Shown here piece after piece: positions 7,606-31,312 of a stretch of DNA of 36,291 bases. Source of the stretch: a virus; the IMG/VR virus record IMGVR_UViG_3300045988_097833; one strand, given 5' to 3'. Each line of letters begins with the position of its first letter. The stretch's first letter is position 1. The position numbers and the translations under genes are program-made. A model generated the notes under the pieces. That model was not told the DNA's origin and did not search any database. It worked only from the letters and a program-made list of their open reading frames with translations.

Positions 7606-9894
7606 TTACTTCGCCCCCATTCTGGTTGTGATGCGTGCGTTTTTGGCGATGCGGAGGATGGTGTCGAGGTCTTCGACGTGGTCGACGTAGACGGTGGTGT
7701 TGTAGGTATCGCCGGAGGTGTAGCGCGTTTCGCTGGCCGTCTGGATGCGCGAGCCGGAGGGGAGATAGATCCGCTCGAGGCCGTTCTCGTTGACCCGCGT
7801 CCAGCCGCCAGACCAGTTGTCCGTGCCGGCGGCGTTGCCGCGAAGCTTTTTGATATATTCCTGCACCCAGAGATCCTGCGACTTTCCGAGCACGGAGCTG
7901 TCACCCGAGCGAACGAGCGATTCATACTGCGCGTTGGCGTAGGCCTCCATGTTGCCGTAGGCTTTGCCGGTGTCGGTGTCGAAGTAGCTGCCGTAGCCGT
8001 TGGCGGCGGTGGTCCGGTTGGTGTCCTGCTGCATCCACTTGGTGTTCAGGCGCTGGAAGTTCGACATCTGGCCCTTGCTGTAGTTCAGGCCAAGCGCTGT
8101 GCCCATCTTGTTGAAATCGAGCGTCAGCAGCCCGGACAGGAAGTCCCCGGCGTCGGCAATGGCTGCCATGACCTCCGACAGCGGGCGCAGCGCCTTCGTC
8201 AGAGCCGGGACCTTGTCATTGGACAGGGTATCCATCGGATTGATGATCTCGCCCGCCGTCTCGAGCAGCATGCCGAAGGAGTCGACCAGCCCTGACTGCT
8301 GCAGTACATCGCCGATATACTTGATGCCGTTGGTGACATCTCCGTAGAATTCTTCCAGGTACGGGGCGAACTCAGCGGAAAGCTGATTCTTGACGCCTTC
8401 CTGCGTGTTCTGTAGGCGGGCGTAGGCGTCGTCGACGCCCTGCAGGGATTTGAGCGCGTCGTTGTCAAGGACATAGCCCATATCATGCGCTTCCTGCGCG
8501 TAAGCCCGCATTTTCTCAACGCCGAGGTCGATGAGCGGATTGAGCTCCTGCGCGGACTCGGACATGAGGTCCATGGCCAGCGCGTCCCGCTCGGTCTGGT
8601 TCTTCATGTCGCCGAGCGCGTCGATGGTGTCAAGAAAAACGGCCTGCGCGCTGCGGAGGCTGCCGTCGGCGTTGGTGATCTCGACGCGCAGCTGCTTGTA
8701 CGCCTCATAGGCGTCGCCGGTGCCGGTCGCGGCCTCCTGCATTTTGTTGGTGGTCTCTTTGAGGCTGTCCTTGATGCGGTCAAAGGAGACGTCCGTGAGG
8801 TCGGCCATGTAGTTGAGCTCCTGCACGGAGTCGGTTGTCGTGCCGGTCACGGAGGCCAGCGTCAGCAGATCGTCGGCGTTTGAGGCGGCTTCCTTCGTCA
8901 TAGAGATCAGTGCCTTTTCAGCCTTGACAATCGCCGCGGCAACAGCGGCAAAGCCGCCCGCCAGCGCCAGCGACGAGGCGTCGAGGCTGCCCATGGCGTT
9001 CATGGACTGCTTCATGCTGTCCGGCAGCTGGATGCCGAGCTTGGACGTCAGGCCGTTCACCACGTCTCCGAGGTTGCCCATGCTCTGCTCGGCCTCCTCA
9101 GTTGCATCGGTGGTGTCCTCCACCTGCTCGGTGTTGCTTTTCAGCTGGCCGTTCAGTTTGTAAAGCTCTGTTTCCGCATTATAAAGGGCTTTCTGCCATT
9201 TACTTGTTTCTACAGAACCGAATCCGTATTTCTCCGCAGCTTCGTCAAGGCCTGCACTCAAAAGATCGATCTTGTCATACTGCAAACTGATCTTTTGTGT
9301 CAGAAGCTCCGTCTTTGCTGCAGCCAATGCCGCTGATTCAGCATCATCCGCGTATTTTGCCGCGACTTTCTGCATTTCCGCATCCAGTACCTCAATGCTG
9401 GCGCTGACCCTGTCGACCGATTCTTTATATTTCTGTTCCTTGTCTCCGTTCAGGCTTTGTTCCAATTCTCCGGTTCGCTCGGCTAGATCCTTCAGTCCAT
9501 CCGAAAAATTGTCGGCAGCACCGCCGGCCGCCTCCAGCTTAGATGTATTATCAGCCAATGCACGCTCCATTTTCACAAGAGCGGCCTCGGCGTTATTCAG
9601 CTGCTGCTGGTATTTTTGGGTCGTTGTGTCGGATATACCATAGGCCTTAGCAGACTTCTGCAGCATCTCCTGTAGCTGCTCGACCTTCTCGCGCTGCGTC
9701 AGGATCTTTTGGTTCAGAACCTCGTTGATCTCCGTCAGGCCCTTGATGCTGTTTTCGTTTTCGGAATAGGTTGTGTTAAGCAGTTTGATCTTGCTGTCCA
9801 GCGTTCCAAGCGCGGCATTGATCTCGGAGACCCGCTGTTTGTACTCGGCTTCGCCGTCCAGTTTGATTTTTGTGCTAATGGTGGCGTCAGCCAT
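7606..9894 (-). CDS. Tail tape measure protein
   Basis: 762 aa with long coiled-coil stretches and a hydrophobic central segment (LALAGGFAAVAAAIV). It sits after the chaperone frameshift pair. Confidence 0.9.
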   Translation of the reverse strand: MADATISTKIKLDGEAEYKQRVSEINAALGTLDSKIKLLNTTYSENENSIKGLTEINEVLNQKILTQREKVEQLQEMLQKSAKAYGISDTTTQKYQQQLNNAEAALVKMERALADNTSKLEAAGGAADNFSDGLKDLAERTGELEQSLNGDKEQKYKESVDRVSASIEVLDAEMQKVAAKYADDAESAALAAAKTELLTQKISLQYDKIDLLSAGLDEAAEKYGFGSVETSKWQKALYNAETELYKLNGQLKSNTEQVEDTTDATEEAEQSMGNLGDVVNGLTSKLGIQLPDSMKQSMNAMGSLDASSLALAGGFAAVAAAIVKAEKALISMTKEAASNADDLLTLASVTGTTTDSVQELNYMADLTDVSFDRIKDSLKETTNKMQEAATGTGDAYEAYKQLRVEITNADGSLRSAQAVFLDTIDALGDMKNQTERDALAMDLMSESAQELNPLIDLGVEKMRAYAQEAHDMGYVLDNDALKSLQGVDDAYARLQNTQEGVKNQLSAEFAPYLEEFYGDVTNGIKYIGDVLQQSGLVDSFGMLLETAGEIINPMDTLSNDKVPALTKALRPLSEVMAAIADAGDFLSGLLTLDFNKMGTALGLNYSKGQMSNFQRLNTKWMQQDTNRTTAANGYGSYFDTDTGKAYGNMEAYANAQYESLVRSGDSSVLGKSQDLWVQEYIKKLRGNAAGTDNWSGGWTRVNENGLERIYLPSGSRIQTASETRYTSGDTYNTTVYVDHVEDLDTILRIAKNARITTRMGAK

Positions 9895-10162
9895 TTAAAG
9901 CCCCCCTGATACAAGATAGTCGTGCAACGACAAGCCGGACGGCTGATCCAGATCGACATATCTGCCGCCTGGCATTGCCTGAGATGCAGACCGGCGCGGC
10001 GTGGCAAGGGAAAAGTATTCCCGATAGATTGCCATGCACCGCGCCGGCGTCATCGTCCTCCAAAATACAGCCTCATCGTTGTGCAGGACGTTGATCCAAA
10101 TGTTTAGGTACCACGCGAATCGGATGCTGTAGGGTTCGGCTGCGTGGTCTGTTCTTTTTTTT
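9895..10162 (-). CDS. -1 frame extension of the tail assembly chaperone (gpT-like part of a G/GT pair)
   Basis: Hand translation of the -1 frame from the A-run is open to TAA 9897..9895: ...RTDHAAEPYSIRFAWYLNIWINVLHNDEAVFWRTMTPARCMAIYREYFSLATPRRSASQAMPGGRYVDLDQPSGLSLHDYLVSGGL. There is no start codon of its own, and the stop abuts the TMP ATG. Confidence 0.75.
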
Positions 10163-14808: not shown

Positions 14809-15982
14809 TGCCTTCGCCTCCTTGCTTCAATTTTTTCTGCTGGCCAATCATGTTAGCCGGGATATAGTTCTCAAGAATAACAAGCTCATCCAAACCATCA
14901 ACGGGAGACAGGTCCAACCAGTCGCGGCATTCGTTGCCGCGCATGAGCCCGCGAACATATAGAGAGCTGGAGACGTCGGCCAGATCCTTGAGCGTGTAGC
15001 TGTACAGTCGGCGGACAGACATTTTAAAATACCAGTCCGGGGACAGCAGAAGCTTGCGTGTCAGCTCCGAGCAGATAATGTTCGCGATGGATGTTGCCGT
15101 CGTCCGGATCATGTGGTTGTGATCGGCGTCGGAGTAGCTGCCGACACCCAGCATATACGGCGTCACGCCGACAATTGCCGCGACCTCACGTTTGTCCAGC
15201 TCAACGCCATCCTTGAGGGCGAGATCTGCAAGACTCAGCGGCTTGACCTGCTGAATGTCCATCAGATCCGCCGGGATGATCCACGGCGCACCGGCCTCGG
15301 AGTTCTGCAGATACTCGGTCATCAGCCGCTTACGGCCGGCCTCACTTGAAAACTCCTCGGACAGGCCGTCGACCTTGACAATGACAGACGGCTTCCACTT
15401 GTCGGACATAAAGCCCTTTTTTGTGGCGGACGCCTGCCGGAGATTGCCGGTCACGTCCCGCAGGCTCGCCCGAAGGCCAAGGCCAAGCCACGGCTGATCC
15501 GGATCCGGCCTGTATTTAAAGTGCAGCACCGTTGCAGGGTCATACATCTTGCCGCGCCATGTCACGTAGTAGGTCGCACCGCCGTCCGTGCTGGACGCCG
15601 TCGCGCCCGGCATCGGCGTCAGATCGGCAAGCAGGCCATCCCGCGTCTGCGGCAAGACAAAGGCGCTGCCGCATGGCGAAAGCAGCATTGTCTGCACGAT
15701 CCACTCGACCCAGTCTTTCCGACCGCCATACCGCCATGGATGGATATCGACAAACCGGCTGAGTTCGTTCCGGACGCGAACGTCACCGTTTTCCGCATTT
15801 CGGAACAGCTGGATTGTCGCGTTGCTGACGATGTCCGCCAGCCCTCCGACCGCCGCCAGGACATCCGGGCTGTCGATCAGCCGATGATATCCCGTCACAG
15901 CCAGCGTGTCAGAATTGGACACCAGCCACTGCAGACAGGACTGGTCGCTTGCAGCGCTGCGGCGCTGCGGTTTCACTTTCAA
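14798..15982 (-). CDS. Portal protein (HK97 family)
   Basis: 394 aa directly after the terminase. TTG start about 9 nt after GGAGG, overlapping the terminase stop. Confidence 0.85.
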   Translation of the reverse strand: MKVKPQRRSAASDQSCLQWLVSNSDTLAVTGYHRLIDSPDVLAAVGGLADIVSNATIQLFRNAENGDVRVRNELSRFVDIHPWRYGGRKDWVEWIVQTMLLSPCGSAFVLPQTRDGLLADLTPMPGATASSTDGGATYYVTWRGKMYDPATVLHFKYRPDPDQPWLGLGLRASLRDVTGNLRQASATKKGFMSDKWKPSVIVKVDGLSEEFSSEAGRKRLMTEYLQNSEAGAPWIIPADLMDIQQVKPLSLADLALKDGVELDKREVAAIVGVTPYMLGVGSYSDADHNHMIRTTATSIANIICSELTRKLLLSPDWYFKMSVRRLYSYTLKDLADVSSSLYVRGLMRGNECRDWLDLSPVDGLDELVILENYIPANMIGQQKKLKQGGEGNGE

Positions 15983-18114
15983 TCGGCATCAGCCTCCGTT
16001 TCATCCCTGGCGCTGTCATACCATCCAGCACCCTTGTTGCTCTCGCTCAAATCATTCAGGTAAGCGCAGGCTGCGAAGACCGCGCAATCAAACACGTCAA
16101 TGCGCAGATTCGGCTCAATCTTCTGGTACTGCACCATGTCGTCGGCCTTCTCGACGCCGGCTACGTTCTGCACGCAGTATTCCATCGGTTCCGCGTGCAT
16201 GTAATAGAGCGTTCCCTGCTTCGCAGATTTCTCAAGATATCGGAACCCCTCGGATTTCAGGATAAAGGTCTGCATCTGCGCCTTGACCGGGAAATGCTCC
16301 TTTTTCATCTCGACAAAGTACTCACGGCAGAACTTCGGGTCGTGCCCGATCCGGCGCATCTTGAAGCCCTCGCCGCGGCGTTTTTTGAACCATCGGACGA
16401 TGTCGCTGTAGTTCGTGACCTTGTCGTTGGTCATGTCAAGCCATCCGTCATCTTTCCAGCCGAACAGCGGGATCTGATCCTTGTTTGCCTTGATCTCCGC
16501 CGCCGGCCGCGGGAACCAGCAGTGCGGGATGATAATATCGACACCCTTGTAATGGCCAAACAGGCAGCAGGCCGTCAAGTCGTGCATCTTGGAGAGATCC
16601 GCGCCGCCGTACCATTTGATCGGCAGGCGTGCGAGCTGCGCCAGCGTCCAGTTGTACTTCGCGTCGGACTTGCGCCACTCGGTAATATCGAACCAGGCAC
16701 GCAGCGCAGCCGTAAAGATGTTAAGCGAGGTGTTTAAAAATTCAGGGCGCAGCTGCGGGTCGGCCTCGGCCTGTGCAGCGTCGTTGATCATATCCTGCGG
16801 CCGGATGCTGTAGCCCCAACCGGGACTTGCGGCCTCCAGTGCCTTCGGATCCAGAAGGTCGACGTCGCCGTTCTCATTGGTCGGGGCCTGCGCGATAAAG
16901 ATGAAGATCTCGTCGGCATACGGATCCTTGATAGTGCCGTTGAGGATCTTCTTGCAGAACTCCACGCGCTGCGCCAGAAAGCCTAGCGCGTTCGCGCCGC
17001 CGGAAGATATGATGATGACAAGCTTGTTGGTGTATGCCTTTGTCGCATCACGCAGCTTCTGGAACTGCTTCGGCGACTTATACACATGCGCCTCATCGCA
17101 GATGACGATGTTGGCATTGAAGGAGTCCTGCTTCTCGGGATTTGCCGCCAGGGCATTGACGGAGATGAATCCGTCACCGATATCGCCGACAATGGAGTGC
17201 TCCATGTTGTTGTCCGTGATACGCAGGCCGCGCTCTGCATCTTCCTTGACCGTCACACCGAGGCGATAGACGTTATATTTCAGGAAGTCGAATCCTTCGA
17301 GCGCCTGCTTGAGCGCACCGCCGACCTCATAGACCTTGGATCCGGACCGGCGTTCATACAAGGCCAACGCCCAAGCCAGCGAGGCGGCGAACGTGGTCTT
17401 GACGTTTTTTCGCGGGATAAAATCAAGCGCTTCTTTGAACCGCCGTTTGTTTGTCCCCTTGAGGTAAAACCCCATGATGTTGAAGCAGATGAACTTGTGG
17501 TAGGGCAGCAGGTAGAACGGCGTGCCGCGCAAAGGGCTCGCGTCCAGGAACTCACCCTGCTGGTGGCAGAGCGTCGTCTCGATGATGGCGATGATCTCGC
17601 AGGCCGGCTCCGGCCGGAAATCCCATCGGCAGGATGCCAGATCGTTGAGATAACGCCGGCATGCCAGGACGATCCATTCGCACGCGACGATCTCCCCGCT
17701 GAGCACTTTGTCGACGTAGGCGTCGACGTCGCGCTGGTTTTCTGCTGCGTGCTCGACAGCGTAGTTGTGCGCATCGTCAAGCAGCTGCTCGATCTTCGAC
17801 CGGTCCGTGCTCACGGTCTGCTTGCTGCGGGCCTTATTCAGGCCGGTCGGCGTCAGTCCCAGCTGGTTGCGCAGGCCCGTGACCGTCGCACGAAGATTCT
17901 CAACGACCGTCCAGTTCGGGTCCTTCGCTGTGTACTCGCCGCCAGTCTTGTTGGTCAGAGTTGCGACCATCAGGCCGCCCGCCTTTTTCCAAGCCTTCTC
18001 CGCGCGACTGAGCTCGCGCTCTGTCTTGGCCAGCTGCTTGATCGTCGGCTCAAAAATCTGGTTGTAAGTGCCGACGGCCTGCATGTCGGCGCGAATCATG
18101 TCCTCTCTGGCCAC
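15979..18114 (-). CDS. Terminase: P27-type small-subunit-like N-terminal domain fused in one ORF to a Terminase_1-type large subunit
   Basis: Uninterrupted 711-aa ORF. GTG start 6 nt after GAGGTGA. Residues 1-~105 end in NQLGLTPTGLNKARSK (small-terminase hallmark, recalled). The rest carries VLSGEIVACEWIVLACRRYLNDL...IPRKNVKTT...ICDEAHVY (ATPase) and a nuclease half. Confidence 0.85.
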   Translation of the reverse strand: MAREDMIRADMQAVGTYNQIFEPTIKQLAKTERELSRAEKAWKKAGGLMVATLTNKTGGEYTAKDPNWTVVENLRATVTGLRNQLGLTPTGLNKARSKQTVSTDRSKIEQLLDDAHNYAVEHAAENQRDVDAYVDKVLSGEIVACEWIVLACRRYLNDLASCRWDFRPEPACEIIAIIETTLCHQQGEFLDASPLRGTPFYLLPYHKFICFNIMGFYLKGTNKRRFKEALDFIPRKNVKTTFAASLAWALALYERRSGSKVYEVGGALKQALEGFDFLKYNVYRLGVTVKEDAERGLRITDNNMEHSIVGDIGDGFISVNALAANPEKQDSFNANIVICDEAHVYKSPKQFQKLRDATKAYTNKLVIIISSGGANALGFLAQRVEFCKKILNGTIKDPYADEIFIFIAQAPTNENGDVDLLDPKALEAASPGWGYSIRPQDMINDAAQAEADPQLRPEFLNTSLNIFTAALRAWFDITEWRKSDAKYNWTLAQLARLPIKWYGGADLSKMHDLTACCLFGHYKGVDIIIPHCWFPRPAAEIKANKDQIPLFGWKDDGWLDMTNDKVTNYSDIVRWFKKRRGEGFKMRRIGHDPKFCREYFVEMKKEHFPVKAQMQTFILKSEGFRYLEKSAKQGTLYYMHAEPMEYCVQNVAGVEKADDMVQYQKIEPNLRIDVFDCAVFAACAYLNDLSESNKGAGWYDSARDETEADAD

Positions 18115-18310: not shown

Positions 18311-18667
18311 TTACCCCCTCCCGTTATTTTCCGTCCGTCGGAAAGAGTCCCCCAGCCCGGTGACCGAGGCCCCTTCCGTTTTCGTTTTTCGAGGGGGGGC
18401 TATTCGTCTTTGCCAGGCCAGCCCGGCCGGCGTCAGCTTTCCGGTCGACCGATCGTGAAAGCTGTTGTGCGCCTGCTGGCTGACCGAGATCAGATTCCAC
18501 TCGGCCCATTGCAGCTCCGGATAATCCTCGACCGGGTAGACATGGTGCACCGTCGTTGCCTCGACGCGCCGGCCGTACCGCATCGCCTCACGGCACAGGC
18601 CTTTGTCCCGGCGAAGGACGCGCGCCCGAAGCGCCAGCCATCGCTTGCTCTTGTAATCCATCGGCAA
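18311..18667 (-). CDS. HNH endonuclease (terminase-associated type)
   Basis: 118 aa with YKSKRWLALRARVLRRDKGLC...VHHV...N...H. It lies immediately upstream of the terminase, as in HK97-like cos phages. Start is TTG 18667 or ATG 18661, with no SD. Confidence 0.85.
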   Translation of the reverse strand: MPMDYKSKRWLALRARVLRRDKGLCREAMRYGRRVEATTVHHVYPVEDYPELQWAEWNLISVSQQAHNSFHDRSTGKLTPAGLAWQRRIAPPRKTKTEGASVTGLGDSFRRTENNGRG

Positions 18668-18705
18668 AAAAGAAAAGCGCCGTGACCCTGAACGGATCGC
18701 GGCGC
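18664..18705 (-). terminator. Intrinsic terminator (11-bp interrupted stem, GTTCA loop, TTTTCTTTTTTGC tail) abutting the HNH start
   Basis: Minus strand reads GCGCCGCGATCCGTTCAGGGTCACGGCGC followed by TTTTCTTTTTTGCCGATG. Confidence 0.7.
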
Positions 18706-18732
18706 ATCTGCCAGCCGGCTATCACCTCGACT

Positions 18733-18785
18733 GCATAACAAAAGCGCCAAACGATCCGACCATCATGGTCAAATCATTTGGCGCT
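18733..18785 (-). terminator. Intrinsic terminator-like compound hairpin overlapping the KTR gene stop
   Basis: AGCGCCAAA...TTTGGCGCT outer stem of 9 bp with an inner palindrome GACCAT-G-ATGGTC, followed by TTTGTTATGC. Confidence 0.5.
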
Positions 18786-18986
18786 GGCACTAGCACGTTG
18801 GCTTTGGCTCTGGCTCGTATTCACGTTTACGACTGTCGCTTTCCTGCAATGCTTGCAGTAAAGCGGGAAGTCGATCAGCCTGGATGTCGGCAGCACTCGC
18901 TGCTGCGTTGGCCTGCCGCACAGTGGGCAGATCAGTTTATCATCCGCTGACACCAACAGTATATCACGCGCAATTCTGTTTTGCAA
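18774..18986 (-). CDS. Cysteine-rich KTR-type small protein
   Basis: 70 aa with LICPLCGRPT...FPLYCKHCRKATVVNV, matching the CxxC...FPLYCxxC pattern of the Cys_rich_KTR family (recalled). Confidence 0.65.
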   Translation of the reverse strand: MQNRIARDILLVSADDKLICPLCGRPTQQRVLPTSRLIDFPLYCKHCRKATVVNVNTSQSQSQRASASAK

Positions 18987-18991
18987 GACTT

Positions 18992-19915
18992 TTATCCACC
19001 CTTCCCGTTATTTATTGATTGTTTCGAGCCGAAAATGTTTATCCCGGTTTGATTTTTGACCCAGCCGAACGTATATCCAAAGTCCCCATATCGGTTATCC
19101 TTACGCTCAGCTGACAACTGCACAACATTGTCCGGCGGCTCATAATGCTCTCCTGGTTCCAGTGTTCGTTCTAATATGACGGGCTGCTGCAGCCCCTTCG
19201 ATGGTGTGTACATGCGAGCCTGCCATCTGGCCCTGCCAGTCTTGCGCGGCTCCTTTGTCATGTACATTGCAACCTTATGATAGCAGTCGATCTCATAATG
19301 TCCCGGCCCTTTGTCTGGACCGAACATCTCAATATACTCGGACAGCAGCAGAGCCGGGCTGCCGCGGATTGGCCGCAAGCCGAACTGGCGGATCGTCTCG
19401 ATATCCATACTACCGTATCGCCACAGCTCGCGGATCAGTTCCGCATTGCCGCCGTCAGCAGGCAGGATCATGTGATGATGGATACGTTTGTCGCCGTGCT
19501 CGCCCTCTATGACATACACATAATCATAGGGCAAACCGCGCGTTTTACGTGCTGGCCGGTATCGCGCGAAGAACGCGCGCAGTCGGCGAGCGGCGATATC
19601 ATAGTTCGGCGGCAGGAAGTCGTCCGCGTATGTCGTGGTGACGAACAGATCGTCCAGCGTAAAGTTTGCCTCGATCAGATGCTCCAGCTTCTGCACGGAT
19701 GACTTATCATTTAGATACTGCTGATACGGTGCAGTCTCATCCGAGCGCCCAGACCTTCGTCCGGCCTGTGGACGGATTGCAGCGCTGTCGATAGCGCGAT
19801 AGCACGGGCCAGCATAGATTTCTTTGATTGTGCGTGAGAATGGGATAGGATCACCTCCTGGTTCTTTTGGCGGGCTCCTGGTTCTTTTGGCGGGCTCGCC
19901 GTGTGAGGGATGCAC
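18992..19915 (-). CDS. HUH-superfamily rolling-circle replication initiator (Rep); 5' end uncertain
   Basis: Three motifs in the canonical order: FVTTTY (motif 1), RIHHHMIL (HUH) and VAMYMTKE (catalytic Tyr). The strong SD AGGAGGTGA (19859..19851) is followed in frame only by ATC (19846). The only canonical in-frame start upstream is GTG 19915, which lies inside a hairpin stem. Confidence 0.75.
   Translation of the reverse strand: MHPSHGEPAKRTRSPPKEPGGDPIPFSRTIKEIYAGPCYRAIDSAAIRPQAGRRSGRSDETAPYQQYLNDKSSVQKLEHLIEANFTLDDLFVTTTYADDFLPPNYDIAARRLRAFFARYRPARKTRGLPYDYVYVIEGEHGDKRIHHHMILPADGGNAELIRELWRYGSMDIETIRQFGLRPIRGSPALLLSEYIEMFGPDKGPGHYEIDCYHKVAMYMTKEPRKTGRARWQARMYTPSKGLQQPVILERTLEPGEHYEPPDNVVQLSAERKDNRYGDFGYTFGWVKNQTGINIFGSKQSINNGKGG
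19855..19894. repeat. Two perfect tandem 20-nt direct repeats (ctcctggttcttttggcggg) upstream of Rep
   Basis: Read directly: 19855..19874 equals 19875..19894. A 20-nt unit is not a codon multiple, so the constraint is at the nucleic-acid level. Confidence 0.9.
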
Positions 19916-19922
19916 GGCGAGC
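19894..19922. other. Perfect 10-bp-stem hairpin (GCTCGCCGTG / CACGGCGAGC, 9-nt loop); candidate Rep nick-site or origin hairpin
   Basis: Read directly. Flanked by the palindrome TGACCGGTCA (19931..19940) and an 8-bp-stem hairpin (19948..19977). Confidence 0.6.
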
Positions 19923-20019
19923 CCATATCATGACCGGTCAGATCCCCGCGGCAGCAGCCATGGCATGCAGCTGCCGCCATAGTCCATGTAAACTAATTGA
20001 CCGGATGATACTGGATCCA

Positions 20020-20650: not shown

Positions 20651-20955
20651 TTCTTTCCTTTCCTCCTGTAATAGCTTCGGAGTGCGGACTCCCGGGATCT
20701 CTCCCGGTGCATTCTTGCCCAGCGGCCGGAAGTCGACATCTGCGGCCAGGCTTCCTCTGGCGTGATTTCCACGCATTCGTCCGGCCGGATGATCACGCGC
20801 TTACCGGCACGCCAGAGGACATAAAAGTATCTGTTGCTGTACGAGTCATTCAGCCTGTCCGCCACAACGGTCTCACCGACAGCGGGAGCCAGATGCGGGT
20901 AGATGGGAATGTGCCGCTTGATGCGGATCACGACGCGCTTGTCAGTGTCACTCAT
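20647..20955 (-). CDS. Hypothetical protein
   Basis: ORF MSDTDKRVVIRIKRHIPIYPHL... The ATG overlaps the upstream stop region. Confidence 0.55.
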   Translation of the reverse strand: MSDTDKRVVIRIKRHIPIYPHLAPAVGETVVADRLNDSYSNRYFYVLWRAGKRVIIRPDECVEITPEEAWPQMSTSGRWARMHRERSRESALRSYYRRKGKK

Positions 20956-21193
20956 CGTACTCAATCACTCCGTCGCGGACACTTTTGACGTGCCGGTAGC
21001 GAATTTCCGTGCCGGAATCCACATGCGCCACCAAGCATGACATTCGAGCAAAGGCCTGCGCACACTCTTGCATCGATATGGCCATTCGCAGCATATGATA
21101 CGTAAGCCCTCTGGATTCTGCGGCTGCCGCCGCCTGATTGCGTGACAAATGTAGCCGTCCCATACATAGCTTGATAAACCGTTTACGTGTCAT
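20948..21193 (-). CDS. Hypothetical protein
   Basis: 81-aa ORF with SD AAAGGAG and an ATGA overlap with the upstream reading frame. Confidence 0.55.
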   Translation of the reverse strand: MTRKRFIKLCMGRLHLSRNQAAAAAESRGLTYHMLRMAISMQECAQAFARMSCLVAHVDSGTEIRYRHVKSVRDGVIEYDE

Positions 21194-24344: not shown

Positions 24345-25730
24345 TCAAAATGGGATCTCAGAGTCTGGGATATCGATAGGCCCGAACTCGCCCGGCTTCA
24401 TCGACGCCTGCTGGTATCGCGGTCTCTGCGGCTGCGGCAGGGATCCATGCTGCGGCTGACTGGAGCTGCGGCGGAAAGTCTGCGTTTGGCCGTCAAAGTC
24501 CAGCTTGACCCCGATATTGCTCTCGCCTTCCTTGTTTTTTGCCACGCGCAGCAGGCGGCGGCTGTTTGGCGAGTCCTGGTCTTCGCGGTACAGGAGCATG
24601 ACCACATCCGCGTCCTGCTCGATCTGGCCGGATGAGCGCAGCGACGAGAGCGTCGGCGGCGGGATCTTGCCGCTCTTGTTGCGTTCCGGCCGCGACAGCT
24701 GCGAAAGCGCGATGATGGGGATGCCCGTCTGCCTACCGAGTTGCTGCAGGTCGCTGGAGATCTGCGAGACGTTTTCGTAGTCGCTGGCGTAGCGCGTCGA
24801 CCGGACCGGCTTGATCTTCTGCAGGTAGTCGACCACGATCAGGTCAAAATGCCGCGACAGCGCCCAACTGCGAATGTCCTGCACGGTCATGCCGCTGGCC
24901 TCGATCAGTTGGAGCTTCGGCTCGGCGAGCTGCTTTCCAATGGCCGCCATCGTGTCCCAGTCGTTTGCGTTGAGCGCGTTCAGCTTGAGCTTTGCCAGCC
25001 CGATCTGCGCGACGGACGCAACTATGCGGTCATAAAGCTTGTCTTTGTCGGTCTCGTAGCTGAAAAAGCCGACTTTCTTTTTCCCGGCCATGCGAAAGGC
25101 CGTACTGAGGGCAAAGGTGGTCTTGCCGTCCGAGGGATAGCCGCCAATGACGACCATATCGCCCGGCCCTGCATAGATCGCGTCGTCCAGCTCCTGGATG
25201 CCCCAGCGCAGATACTCCTTTTTGACGTCCGGATCGTGCCGGGCGAAGAATTCCTGATACGCTTCGGCCATCGTCGCCGTCCGGACGCCGGGGCGGCTGA
25301 CCATGATCGCGTTGGCCCGGTCAAGCAGCTGCGCGATATCATCCTCAGATTCCGCGCCGAGGATCTCGGACGCGAGATCCTTCAGGCTCATGAGCCGTGC
25401 CCGCTGCTTCAGGATCCGCACATACTCGCCCACATTGGCTGCCGTCGGCGTGACCTGCATCAGCCTGGCCACGAGATCATACATGGTCGGGTTCTGCCCG
25501 CCGCCCGTGACCTCGGCCAGCACCGTGACTGCGTCGATCTTCCGGCTTTCGCTGTACAGGTGCGCGATCGCGTCGAAGATCATGCGGTATGTCGGCTGCG
25601 TGATGTAGTCCGGCCGGACTTCGGCCAGCACAGCGCCGACGCAGCGGCTGTCGATCAGCATGGAGCCGAGGACGGACGCCTGCGCGTCCAGCAGGTTTTG
25701 CTGATCCAGCGCAGATCTGTCTACAGCCAT
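24345..25730 (-). CDS. dnaB: Replicative DNA helicase (DnaB family)
   Basis: 461 aa. N-terminal LLDAQASVLGSMLID, Walker A GGYPSDGKTTFAL, and IVVDYLQ...SQLSR motifs. Confidence 0.9.
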   Translation of the reverse strand: MAVDRSALDQQNLLDAQASVLGSMLIDSRCVGAVLAEVRPDYITQPTYRMIFDAIAHLYSESRKIDAVTVLAEVTGGGQNPTMYDLVARLMQVTPTAANVGEYVRILKQRARLMSLKDLASEILGAESEDDIAQLLDRANAIMVSRPGVRTATMAEAYQEFFARHDPDVKKEYLRWGIQELDDAIYAGPGDMVVIGGYPSDGKTTFALSTAFRMAGKKKVGFFSYETDKDKLYDRIVASVAQIGLAKLKLNALNANDWDTMAAIGKQLAEPKLQLIEASGMTVQDIRSWALSRHFDLIVVDYLQKIKPVRSTRYASDYENVSQISSDLQQLGRQTGIPIIALSQLSRPERNKSGKIPPPTLSSLRSSGQIEQDADVVMLLYREDQDSPNSRRLLRVAKNKEGESNIGVKLDFDGQTQTFRRSSSQPQHGSLPQPQRPRYQQASMKPGEFGPIDIPDSEIPF

Positions 25731-26482
25731 CGCGTACCCTCCGTGCTGACCACGTGCGAGGGTGCAGGCGGGACCGGCTGCCGTTCCTCATCCGTCCAGC
25801 GCTGCTGGTTGAGATACGTCGAGGCATGCGGGATACCAATGCCCTGCCGCCACTCCTCAGACATCATCTGCCGCTTGAGACAGACGGCAATGTGGTCGAT
25901 CAGCTTGTCGTCCGGCTGGAGCTTATCCCAGGCCCGGATTGCGGCCTGTCTCCCCTCTCCGCGGGGATAGAACTTCCAGAAGCCCTCAAAACGTTCCGGC
26001 TTCCAGTCGGCGGTCGCCTTCGGCTCTGTTTTGCGCTTTTTAGGGCGCTGCCCCCCTTGGGGGGCTTTAGGGGGTTTATCTTGTATATTATCTAAATCAT
26101 TATATATACCTCCACTTTTTTGCGGAGGGGGGGTGGACTTTTCGGTGGAGGGGGGTCTCCGCAATTCTGCGGAGGGGGGTGCCGGCAAAGTCTGATAGAT
26201 CCGCCGCATCGTGGCCCCCGTTTTGGGGTCGTTCGACAGCTGGATCACGATGTATCCGGCGTCCGCCAGCGCAGCTACCAGCCGGCTGACAGACTTCGCG
26301 TTCCACTTATGCCCCTCGGCCAGCTCCTGGTTGCTGGCATCGCAGTAGCCCTCCTTGCCGACGAAGTGCATGAGCGTCGTAATCTCGCCATAGAGCAGCT
26401 TCGCGTTCGCGCTCAGCGCGTCGTCATAGAGGACCGGGGCCGGGATATTCGCCCAGTACGCCCGCACCTGTTTTTCTGCCAA
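25721..26482 (-). CDS. Replication initiator / replisome organiser (N-terminal winged-helix, Pro-rich linker, C-terminal FWKFYP...YLNQQRW domain)
   Basis: TTG 26482 lies 8 nt after GGAGG; ATG 26488 and 26521 are alternative starts. Ends at TAG 25721, overlapping the dnaB start. Confidence 0.7.
   Translation of the reverse strand: MAEKQVRAYWANIPAPVLYDDALSANAKLLYGEITTLMHFVGKEGYCDASNQELAEGHKWNAKSVSRLVAALADAGYIVIQLSNDPKTGATMRRIYQTLPAPPSAELRRPPSTEKSTPPPQKSGGIYNDLDNIQDKPPKAPQGGQRPKKRKTEPKATADWKPERFEGFWKFYPRGEGRQAAIRAWDKLQPDDKLIDHIAVCLKRQMMSEEWRQGIGIPHASTYLNQQRWTDEERQPVPPAPSHVVSTEGTRWL
26050..26180. other. Candidate replication origin inside the initiator gene: 16-nt palindrome, AT-rich island and three G-rich iterons
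   Basis: gccccccttggggggc (26050..26065); ttatcttgtatattatctaaatcattatatata (about 26076..26108) in an otherwise GC-rich gene; GGAGGGGGG repeats starting at 26124, 26147 and 26171. Confidence 0.55.
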
Positions 26483-26595
26483 AATCATCACCTCCGCCCC
26501 TTGCATTTTCGGGGAAGTCATGGTAAGATATAGATGCTTTCATGTTGTTCGTTTCGGACGACAGTGACCGTGCAGCTGTTCCAGCAGCTGTGCGG

Positions 26596-29834: not shown

Positions 29835-30278
29835 TTGTCGGAAAATTTGTGGGAAACGTGCCGGGAGGCCAAGGCAACAATGCAGCCGCGAAAGACGAAT
29901 CAGGATATCGCGGACGAATCCGGGCTGTCCATCAATACTGTCGGGCAGTTTTTGCGCGGTGAAACAAAAAGCCCGTCCGTCGATACGGTCGGGCCGATCT
30001 GCGCGGCGCTCGGCGTATCGATGGATGAGCATTTTGGTGTGGAGTCCCCAGCTGAGGACGATACAGCCGAGGTCGAAAACCTGCGGCTCCAGCTGGCGAA
30101 CGCAGAGAATCTGAATAAGATCTATGAAAAAGAACTCAAGCGCAAAAATGTGCAGAATTGGGTGTTGGCAGCCATCGTGCTGATCGCGCTGCTGGCCCTG
30201 CTGGTTGACCTCTGCAACCCGAACGTCGGCTGGATCCGAGCAGCCTTTACGTCGCATATGGAGGTGTGGCCCATTTGA
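29835..30278 (+). CDS. Membrane-anchored XRE-type HTH protein (HTH, coiled coil, C-terminal TM)
   Basis: TTG start 8 nt after GGAGGG. Sequence ...NQDIADESGLSINTVGQFLRGETKSP..., coiled coil ENLRLQLANAENLNKIYEKELKRK, TM WVLAAIVLIALLALLVDL. Overlaps the integrase start. Confidence 0.65.
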   Translation: MSENLWETCREAKATMQPRKTNQDIADESGLSINTVGQFLRGETKSPSVDTVGPICAALGVSMDEHFGVESPAEDDTAEVENLRLQLANAENLNKIYEKELKRKNVQNWVLAAIVLIALLALLVDLCNPNVGWIRAAFTSHMEVWPI

Positions 30279-31312
30279 AAACGCCAAAGCCTCGCCGGCT
30301 GAAATCCGGCAGCTACTTTATTCAGATGCGCCTCGGCGGTGAAAGCATCTCCATCACAAGGCCTTCGGCGCGCGAGTGTACGCAGGCCGCCATGGAGATC
30401 AAGGCCGCCCATCTGGCCGGCCGGAAGCTTGTATCGAAGTCTGAAATGACCGTCGGCCAGCTCGTGGACGCATACATCAAGAGCCGCCCGGTAAAGACCT
30501 CCCCTGCCACTTTGCGCGGATACAAGACCTACCGCAAAAATCGCTTCTCCTCGATCATGGACAAGCGGCCGCAGCAGATCAAGGACTGGCAGGCCGTCGT
30601 CGACGAGGAAGCGCAGCTCGTCAGCGCCAAGACGCTCAAAAATGCCTGGGGCCTGGTGACTGCTTCGCTGCGGCGTGCAAAGCTCGCCGTGCCGGAGGAC
30701 GTCGTGATCCCGCAGATTATCAAGAAGCCGATCCCCTTCCTGCGCTACAACGAGATCCTGCCGCTGCTCAAAGTGGTCAAAGGCCGCCCTGAAGAGCTTG
30801 CTGTCCTGCTTGGGCTGCACTCGCTCCGACTGTCTGAAATGTTCGCCATACGGCCGCAGGATATCGACCTGCGAACCAGAATGATCCACGTTTCCGGCGC
30901 AGTCGTTCGCGGGCCAGATGGCTGGGTCCACAAGGCCGAAAACAAAAACGAGGGGAGCCAGCGCAATGTCCCGATCATGGTTGACCGACTTGTCGAGCTG
31001 TCCGAAGGCCTGGCCGGCGAAACTGCAGTCAAAGTAAAGTCCTCCTACTTTTTAGAGCACCTGCATATGGACTGCGTGGAGGCCGGTGTGACAGATGTCA
31101 CGATCCATGGCCTGCGGCATTCCTTCGCGTCTCTCTGCCACCATGCAGGCATCAGCGAGCTGCAGTGCATGAAATGGGGTGGATGGTCTGACCAGCAGAC
31201 GATGCACAAGATCTACATGCACATTGCAGAGGCAGATGAGACTGATGACTTAAAGAAAATGCGCAGCCTGTTCCGCGAGGAAGAGACTGCACAGGAGGAT
31301 TTAGCCCGTTAG
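30266..31312 (+). CDS. int: Tyrosine recombinase (phage integrase)
   Basis: 348 aa with LLGLHSLRLSE (Arg I), HGLRHSFAS (H-x-x-R) and QTMHKIYMH (catalytic Tyr). Start is GTG 30266 or TTG 30275. Confidence 0.9.
   Translation: MAHLKTPKPRRLKSGSYFIQMRLGGESISITRPSARECTQAAMEIKAAHLAGRKLVSKSEMTVGQLVDAYIKSRPVKTSPATLRGYKTYRKNRFSSIMDKRPQQIKDWQAVVDEEAQLVSAKTLKNAWGLVTASLRRAKLAVPEDVVIPQIIKKPIPFLRYNEILPLLKVVKGRPEELAVLLGLHSLRLSEMFAIRPQDIDLRTRMIHVSGAVVRGPDGWVHKAENKNEGSQRNVPIMVDRLVELSEGLAGETAVKVKSSYFLEHLHMDCVEAGVTDVTIHGLRHSFASLCHHAGISELQCMKWGGWSDQQTMHKIYMHIAEADETDDLKKMRSLFREEETAQEDLAR

Follow-up and report, generated by a model that had tools for sequence, protein, structure and literature searches.

An HUH Rep endonuclease gene with a probable AUC start codon, resident beside a theta-type replicon in temperate phages of Oscillospirales

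The viral DNA IMGVR_UViG_3300045988_097833 (36,291 nt; called the window below, meaning the whole stretch analyzed) encodes, in addition to the iteron/DnaB replicon of a temperate phage, a second initiator-type protein, an HUH endonuclease that we refer to as Rep. An earlier note on the same DNA had singled out this gene, the Cys-rich KTR gene behind it and a cluster of hairpins and direct repeats in front of it, reading the whole as an extra replication module or as hitch-hiking cargo. Our analysis indicates that the open reading frame (ORF) at 18992..19846 (-), 284 amino acids (aa) long from its proposed AUC start, codes for a functional HUH endonuclease of the Rep class, from the PF23343/phrog_3584 family, that AUC is most likely the codon used to begin translation, and that the gene is a resident of these phage genomes. 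Rep is a further member of a known family, and the architecture is already visible in the published genome of the phage Cormatin; the features that add interest are the AUC start, a conserved structured element upstream of the gene and a late promoter embedded in KTR.

The assignment rests first on profile searches. Rep scored 39.2 bits against Pfam PF23343 (REP_ORF2-G2P), above the curated cut-off of 27.8, and matched PHROG phrog_3584 'replication initiation protein' with an E value of 9.8e-40 over residues 30-250 (the genes of this region all lie on the minus strand). With the His and Tyr residues aligned as well, the profile search that the earlier note had proposed does place the ORF in a Rep family. 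The note had also reported the three HUH motifs in canonical order, and both coordinates and order were confirmed: motif I, FVTTTY (19628..19645 (-)), aligns with the consensus FVTLTY and has a T and a Y that are invariant across 14 homologues; the HUH motif, RIHHHMIL (19463..19486 (-)), holds H123 and H125 (active-site residues are numbered from the ATC codon); and the catalytic Tyr motif, VAMYMTKE (YxxK, 19250..19273 (-)), contains the Y195 codon at 19262..19264. In a family alignment of 105 Rep representatives with 23-50% identity, neither H125 nor Y195 varies, H123 is conserved at 90% or more and only a single Tyr is conserved, while K198 (Y+3) is conserved to at least 90% in the 10 closest homologues. 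The order motif I-HUH-Tyr, with the Tyr C-terminal to the HUH motif, is the Rep order and not the relaxase order.

Structural comparison pointed the same way. An AlphaFold2 model of Rep (predicted local distance difference test score 79.6) matched phage ORF2/G2P proteins in BFVD with E values of 1e-15 and microvirus initiators with 1e-5 to 1e-6, the BFVD matches also including a 'replication gene A protein'. The best matches in the PDB were HUH proteins (SIRV1 ORF119, AAV Rep, geminivirus and circovirus Rep, and IS608 TnpA), all of them weak (E at least 0.03). A PDB sequence search with the Rep profile returned noise only, neither Pfam nor the PDB gave a sequence-level link to Phage_GPA, and PADLOC found no defence-system match for Rep, KTR or their neighbors. 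The family is large: a profile search of 1.84 billion representatives recovered 4478 relatives at E <= 1e-3.

The absence of a canonical start codon raises the question of whether the gene is silenced or decaying. No ATG, GTG or TTG is found at or after the Shine-Dalgarno (SD) sequence over at least 30 codons, and gene callers disagree on N-termini in the family, both of which would fit decay. Nevertheless, we regard decay as highly improbable. In comparison with a lineage whose Rep is 95% identical, the ratio of nonsynonymous to synonymous divergence (dN/dS) was 0.033 at a synonymous divergence (dS) of 0.71, with 92 synonymous changes, which argues that the gene is functional; a cluster with 362 member sequences retains the ORF in intact form, and the SD is kept at optimal spacing. 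We also noted that synonymous divergence is very low around the HUH motif (19461..19546 (-); ~1 change per 15 codons versus 5-8 elsewhere), where AT-rich codons are used (GAT TAT GTG TAT GTC ATA). An origin inside the Rep gene at this site was considered and rejected, as third codon positions there vary freely across lineages.

The mechanical ORF containing Rep (18992..19915 (-)) reaches a GTG, at 19915..19913, that sits within the 5´ arm of a hairpin (hairpin B, described below). The SD AGGAGG (19854..19859) is followed, after a 7-nt spacer, by an in-frame ATC (19846..19844), the two spanning 19844..19859 (-), and within 30 codons after this ATC there is no in-frame ATG, GTG or TTG. The earlier note had already remarked that the strong SD is followed in the Rep frame only by ATC and that the GTG lies in a hairpin stem; both statements stand, and comparisons with relatives favor the ATC as the start. 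The window and the 95%-identical lineage (L004) differ by a 1-nt insertion or deletion in the SD-ATC spacer, so the frame upstream of the ATC is not conserved. Homologues with ordinary start codons begin no more than two residues from the ATC position, and the AGGAGG is conserved 7-8 nt upstream of the start codon in relatives. In a lineage with Rep proteins 43% identical to that of the window, close relatives have either ATG or ATC at exactly the start-codon position. An in-frame ATC at SD-compatible spacing is also present in three more lineages. These three carry, however, a GTG three codons downstream of the ATC that overlaps the stop codon of the upstream ORF and could be the start instead, which weighs against an AUC start there. 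For the window, we conclude from these comparisons that AUC (19846..19844) is probably the Rep start.

An AUC start would imply weak and tightly limited translation of Rep. It would also mean that N-termini in databases are wrong, as for the 346-aa protein P0001 (L004-L011, 10001..11041), the 95%-identical homologue, which was called with a false N-terminal extension of 62 residues because there is no canonical start at the true site. Public annotations of these Rep genes thus carry wrong N-termini. The literature on AUC start codons that we searched contained nothing on this system, and the ATG/ATC polymorphism at the Rep start offers a rare natural case for the study of AUC initiation in bacteria.

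In the three lineages with the downstream GTG, Rep is immediately preceded by an ORF whose stop codon overlaps the GTG at the Rep start (as GTGA or GTGATTGA), suggesting translational coupling. In L047 (9760..10017) and L058 (9819..10004), the overlapping ORF is a member of a family of small ORFs whose products start MTRKRxxKLxMG. In L055 the family member (9470..9760) is separated from Rep by another ORF, of 83 aa (9757..10008), and it is this one that overlaps Rep. The window has a member of this family as well (20948..21193 (-)), 1 kb upstream of Rep.

We next consider whether Rep belongs to the phage or travels with it. The window is that of a temperate phage, with an integrase (30266..31312), a cI-like repressor and an amidase, and the gene order initiator-DnaB-ParA-(ParB)-...-Rep-KTR-HNH-TerS/L-portal is kept in ~80 IMG/VR loci in which Rep identity falls from 100% to 30%. 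Eight near-identical contigs share the gene order of the window, and the same order was found in Cormatin, a published Flavonifractor phage, as well as in Oscillospirales genomes by a profile scan (a genome scan with a single Rep protein as the query found nothing). Since this order is shared by the ~80 related contigs and Cormatin, we consider Rep a resident, vertically conserved gene and not cargo. Throughout a large clade of temperate HK97-like (HNH/cos) siphoviruses of Oscillospirales, no other replication-type gene of the early operon comes after Rep.

The alternative, raised in the earlier note, is that Rep and KTR are passengers, as a hitch-hiking rolling-circle element or as cargo of a satellite-like kind. 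The AT-richness that the note had seen by eye is real and mild: the GC content is 0.539 for Rep and 0.535 for KTR versus 0.591 for the window (0.54 vs 0.59), and GC at third codon positions is 0.61-0.62 in the two genes versus 0.71-0.82 in neighboring genes. The module is at the 7th percentile of the window for GC and at the 89th for tetranucleotide distance, within its normal range. Rep also has a history different from that of its 3´ neighbors, with a dS of 0.71 versus 0.13-0.18, a contrast that we take for ordinary phage mosaicism at the junction of early and late genes. Rep or its homologue occupies the same position in all of the ~80 relatives and in Cormatin; no presence/absence polymorphism of Rep was seen among these relatives, and alignments with close relatives revealed no insertion boundaries. 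With synteny universal and the compositional dip only mild, the cargo reading fails the test that the note itself had set for it, and we consider it very improbable. The last 65 nt of Rep (19005..19069 (-)) are identical to the 95%-identical lineage, while dS is ~0.7 for the rest of Rep and 0.13-0.18 for KTR and HNH. This points to a recombination breakpoint within the 3´ end of Rep, near 19070, at the early/late junction.

Rep is not the only initiator-type protein of this phage. The window encodes a lambda-O/DnaD-like initiator (phrog_270, 25721..26521 (-)), DnaB (24345..25730 (-)), ParA and a ParB-like protein. Three tandem 23-nt iterons (26110..26179, consensus CTCCnCnnTTnnGCGGAGGGGGG on the plus strand) lie inside the initiator gene and therefore likely constitute a self-contained theta-type origin. 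The coexistence of Rep with a separate initiator, an internal origin candidate and DnaB, noted earlier, was confirmed; DnaB, ParA and a lambda-like initiator with iterons inside its gene are common to all phages of the clade.

With modest confidence, we favor a role for Rep as a low-dose nickase that starts rolling-circle replication. Rep would be made at a low level, from an AUC lying 7 nt behind a strong SD. The iteron origin would first drive theta replication and amplify the circular phage DNA; a site-specific nick made by Rep in one of its strands would then prime rolling-circle (sigma) replication, and this synthesis would supply the concatemers needed by the cos/HNH terminase. Two observations weigh against this role. 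The family has one conserved Tyr, unlike phiX174 or P2 gpA, so the termination chemistry of Rep would have to differ from the models based on these proteins. In addition, the literature that we found gives no nicking, origin or replication data for this phage Rep clade, and searches on PF23343, phrog_3584, KTR and Cormatin gave nothing on this system.

Another explanation is that Rep is not an independent initiator and acts in one pathway with the DnaD-like protein and DnaB, a nick being followed by helicase loading as for P2 gpA with gpB and DnaB; in a variant, Rep would serve non-replicative DNA processing (end resolution or a packaging-related nick). Rep and DnaB indeed co-occur without exception where enough upstream DNA is present, and Rep lies beside the packaging block, ~1.6 kb from cos. 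However, the initiator gene has its own iterons, as is typical of a self-sufficient lambda-O-type origin, and phiSM101 and Latilactobacillus phages carry Rep in the middle of the early region, away from the packaging genes. We consider a shared pathway unlikely. If Rep, as a separate nickase, does set off the passage from the theta to the rolling-circle mode, these phages would have a dedicated switch that can be separated genetically and has no counterpart in lambda-type models. The family is common, as its 4478 cluster representatives indicate, and is fixed in many temperate phages of Oscillospirales, which are abundant and poorly studied gut bacteria; no member from the tailed-phage clade is known to have been characterized.

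A site for the proposed nick was sought upstream of Rep. The 173-nt intergenic strand folds at -43.1 kcal/mol, compared with -28.1 +/- 3.1 for shuffled sequences (z = -4.8; 0/200 shuffles as good), and contains a conserved non-coding element (19892..19998 (-)) made up of TGGACT (19981..19986), hairpin A, GCGGGGA (19943..19949), CCGG, GATAT and hairpin B. Hairpin A (19950..19978 (-); arms 19950..19958 and 19970..19978) has 9 bp including one G.T pair, where the earlier note had correctly placed a hairpin and given it an 8-bp stem; its loop motif TGCCAT (19960..19965) is invariant. RNAalifold predicted 8 pairs for hairpin A, 6 of which (6/8) show compensatory double changes, in agreement with folds of the individual sequences. 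The blocks TGGACT, GGGGA and CCGG within the element are likewise invariant. The palindrome TGACCGGTCA that had been noted upstream of Rep is present at 19931..19940.

Hairpin B (19892..19924 (-); arms 19892..19903 and 19913..19924) was also seen by the earlier note, with a perfect 10-bp stem; the stem is perfect and is 12 bp long, with a 9-nt loop. Every version of the element has a hairpin here; its stem comes in more than eight sequences, almost all of which pair without a mismatch. The loop is variable, and the stem differs even between loci with ~98% identical Reps. With a loop that is not conserved and a stem sequence that changes freely, hairpin B does not behave as the nick hairpin that the note had taken it for. 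What is constant is its start, 1-2 nt after GATAT in all versions. The GATAT at the 5´ foot of the hairpin (19925..19929 (-)) forms invariant columns in 32 distinct elements and is a candidate nick core by resemblance only, to the G|ATA nick core of phiX174 gpA and pC194-type Reps. This block was rejected as a -10 promoter element, with the conserved final T missing and no -35 sequence at the right distance.

The element also borders on two perfect tandem copies of a 20-nt unit (GAGCCCGCCAAAAGAACCAG x2; 19858..19877 and 19878..19897 (-)), which overlap the 3´ arm of hairpin B and had been read as Rep-binding repeats. The repeats are there; a conserved iteron role for them is not borne out. The unit is duplicated only in the window and the identical contigs L016-L019, occurs once in L020-L022 (Rep 98-99% identical) and in the L004 group (95%), and is missing in other lineages. 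As the duplication is confined to the sublineage of the window, we interpret it as a recent event without a conserved role and the repeats as something other than conserved iterons. An 89-aa ORF overlapping the element (19711..19980) was dismissed, being broken by insertions and deletions in relatives.

The two-hairpin element was found in three phage lineages with Reps 31-44% identical to that of the window, and in a pattern scan of IMG/VR each genuine copy with room downstream precedes Rep, sometimes with a small ORF between them. Forty-five matches of a loose pattern without Rep were discarded as chance matches in coding DNA of unrelated ~78 kb phages, without hairpins. Rfam contained no family matching the element, giving chance hits only, below gathering scores. 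The element, with its TGCCAT loop and GATAT, is the best candidate region for the Rep nick site; it could equally act as RNA. Two further points weigh against its being the origin. The element is not beside Rep in L012-L015, L043/47/48 and L051-L058, among them one with a Rep 70% identical to that of the window and translationally coupled to the upstream gene, so it cannot be a universal origin for the family. Moreover, invariant single-stranded motifs that accompany Rep down to 31% identity, together with stems constrained in structure only, would fit an RNA element read by the host at least as well.

It is thus a substantial possibility, if a somewhat weaker one than the nickase role itself, that the element acts as RNA, a cis-acting leader on the early transcript, and is not a DNA origin. 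Candidate roles for such a leader are HK022 put-like processive antitermination through the two terminators behind KTR (T1 and T2, below), RNA processing or stabilization, and control of the weak AUC initiation; in that case Rep would nick at some other site, which might be within the Rep gene itself, as it is for P2 and phiX174. The stems covary freely around invariant loop and spacer motifs across the lineages with distant Reps, and G.U-type pairs are found on the coding strand, though A·C-type intermediates also occur (L024) and make this strand bias weak. Where a small ORF has been inserted between the element and Rep, the element stays behind the preceding gene and the SD of that gene. 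The two strong terminators further down would suit antitermination, yet lineages without the element still have T1 and T2. The Rep at 70% identity with no such element nearby is more easily accommodated by an RNA, while the lack of an Rfam match, of a U-tract after hairpin B and of a visible promoter upstream count against one. It is also well established that HUH families tend to keep their nick motifs even when the Reps have diverged widely, as would suit a DNA site. The element could thus equally be a DNA origin or a cis-acting RNA. The contig of one relative (L025, 1..130) ends ~127 nt upstream of Rep, with the hairpin B sequence replaced and the upstream gene inverted, which may reflect either faulty assembly at the hairpin or a genuine break or rearrangement at that point.

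Downstream of Rep, the 70-aa KTR zinc-ribbon protein is encoded at 18774..18986 (-); its gene starts with TTG, 8 nt behind the SD. KTR matched PF14205 (Cys_rich_KTR) with an E value of 4.5e-12 and 46.0 bits, against a threshold of 25.5. Its four Cys (CPxC ... CxxC) are conserved in all lineages, and a KTR-type ORF follows Rep in nearly all clade members. The earlier note had grouped KTR with Rep in one replication module. The divergence of the two genes speaks for a different grouping: KTR is 70% identical to that of the L035 group, whose Rep is 43% identical, and dS is 0.13 for KTR versus 0.71 for Rep. KTR evolves with the late genes, and its tie appears to be with a late-gene switch, not with Rep. 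In Pfam and NCBIfam it matched neither Com nor Ogr/Delta at E <= 0.1, nor Q at E < 0.1, and the sole link of KTR to regulators was phrog_6417 'translational regulator' (E 1.1e-3).

The first 10 codons of KTR contain a sequence with the features of a sigma-A-type promoter (18958..18986 (-)), with a -35 element TTGCAA (18981..18986), a TG (18965..18966) and a -10 element TATACT (18958..18963). A consensus scan also picked up this TTGCAA-17-TGaTATACT, with a predicted transcription start near 18951 reading into T1. The first codons of KTR are TTG CAA, the TTG being present in 49/49 genes and the CAA in 47, and TTGCAA/T-17-TGnTAnAnT was found in all 34 distinct sequences (34/34) despite differing peptides; 26 of these were scored directly, and the 8 of the L063 type, which use a second TTGCAT 12 nt downstream, were counted by inspection. 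The conservation of TTGCAA-17-TGnTAnAnT identifies it as a putative sigma-A-type promoter with an extended -10. A leaderless KTR mRNA made from this promoter was considered and set aside, since relatives do not keep an in-frame start codon where the transcript is predicted to begin.

That the module ends in two terminator hairpins, as reported earlier, was confirmed. T1 (18743..18785 (-)) is a 20-21-bp hairpin followed by TTTTGTT that overlaps the KTR stop codon, and T2 (18665..18705 (-)) is a 12-bp stem with one mismatch (18677..18705) and a U-tract to 18665, ending 3 nt before the HNH ATG. All lineages that we examined had both, and compensatory changes in the stems were seen (L064 and L013 are examples); the two hairpins are predicted to be intrinsic terminators. 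Between them, at 18715..18730 (-), lies a block, (C)CGAGGTGATAGCCGG, that is near-invariant in all lineages. The plan of the KTR-HNH spacer (18665..18785 (-)) is shared with L013, L014, L035, L047, L055, L058 and L064, the order being T1 over the KTR stop, the near-invariant GAGGTGATAGCCGG, a mini-ORF in four lineages, T2, and an HNH ATG without its own SD. The mini-ORF consists of two codons (ATG or GTG, then GCA, with TGA or TAA as the stop) and abuts the 5´ arm of T2; the window has a CTG at this position with no nearby stop. In L013 the near-invariant block serves as the HNH SD and there is no T2. This plan suggests ribosome- or protein-dependent attenuation.

The HNH endonuclease (18311..18667 (-); phrog_144 and phrog_119, E 1e-18) is the first gene of the packaging block. 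Many independent contigs (L029, L032, L039, L064-L066, L074, L076 and L079) end at ...TTCTGAnnnAGCAC, ~9 nt after the HNH stop codon, and the contigs L049 and L088 run into Illumina adapter (AGATCGGAAGAGC) 9 nt after it. Such coincident ends in relatives of the phage in the window mark a physical DNA end, the cos site, ~9 nt past the HNH stop. In the window the small and large terminase subunits (TerS and TerL) are fused in a 711-aa protein (15979..18114 (-)) with Terminase_4 at residues 9-94, the TerL ATPase at 204-388 and the nuclease at 400-680; they are separate in Cormatin and in L012/L013.

Collectively, KTR, the embedded promoter and T1/T2 probably mark the early/late boundary and belong to late-gene control, not to Rep, with KTR as a dedicated antiterminator being a positional candidate only. 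The promoter inside KTR and the double terminator provide a testable model for late-gene control and suggest a first functional lead for the uncharacterized Cys_rich_KTR family. A bolder scheme, which we regard as rather doubtful, would join the parts: the 1.3-kb stretch would be a conserved late-stage cassette of a large clade of gut Clostridia phages, in which a nickase held to a very low dose by a naturally selected AUC start, alternating with AUG among close relatives, cuts at the invariant GATAT/hairpin element for a theta-to-rolling-circle switch, and KTR is a new Q-like/Com-like late switch on its own embedded promoter and T1/T2, so that concatemers and late genes are turned on together.

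Several known systems share parts of this arrangement. Rep resembles the PF23343/PHROG 3584 proteins of plectroviruses, inoviruses and many uncultured siphoviruses in profile, motif I, HUH, YxxK and predicted fold; where members of the family are the sole initiator of small ssDNA genomes, Rep sits in a 36-38-kb tailed dsDNA phage with its own theta-type replicon. P2 gpA and phiX174 gpA are of the same enzyme class and have the same motif order, and P2 provides a tailed-phage precedent; they have two Tyr where Rep has one, and the phage of Rep also encodes its own initiator and DnaB. The dual replicons of P1 (RepA/oriR and RepL/oriL) and the theta-to-sigma switch of lambda are functional analogies. 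As in the phage of the window, a single temperate phage has two replication modes or initiators and needs concatemers for packaging, but the protein families are different and lambda has no dedicated sigma-mode initiator. For the late boundary, the Q/PR'/6S leader/tR' region of lambda is similar in having the last early gene, a near-consensus promoter, a ~215-nt leader, strong terminators and late genes across cos, while P2 Ogr and Mu Com are, like KTR, small Cys4 regulators, the likeness being in size, Cys4 pattern and position only. KTR has no family match to Q, Ogr or Com at E < 0.1, and here the promoter is inside the ORF of the predicted regulator itself.

The closest published counterpart is Cormatin (ON453905), which has the host order and the gene order of the window (DnaD-like initiator, DnaB, ParA-like protein, ..., HUH Rep, KTR-type zinc ribbon, HNH, TerS and TerL) and, where its KTR begins, the same promoter motif. 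Its annotation lists two 'replication initiation proteins', one of them the HUH Rep WAK79867.1, and a 'translational regulator', WAK79866.1; the latter, its KTR (L001, 6855..6971), was called as a truncated 38-aa fragment without the first CxxC. No experimental study of the Cormatin Rep or KTR was found in the literature searched. The proteins of Cormatin and the window are ~27% (Rep) and ~33% (KTR) identical, and the HUH motif of Cormatin is a canonical H-I-H. In contrast to the window, the Cormatin Rep has an ATG start and no upstream two-hairpin element. Cormatin in Flavonifractor plautii offers a cultured system in which the roles proposed here can be tested.

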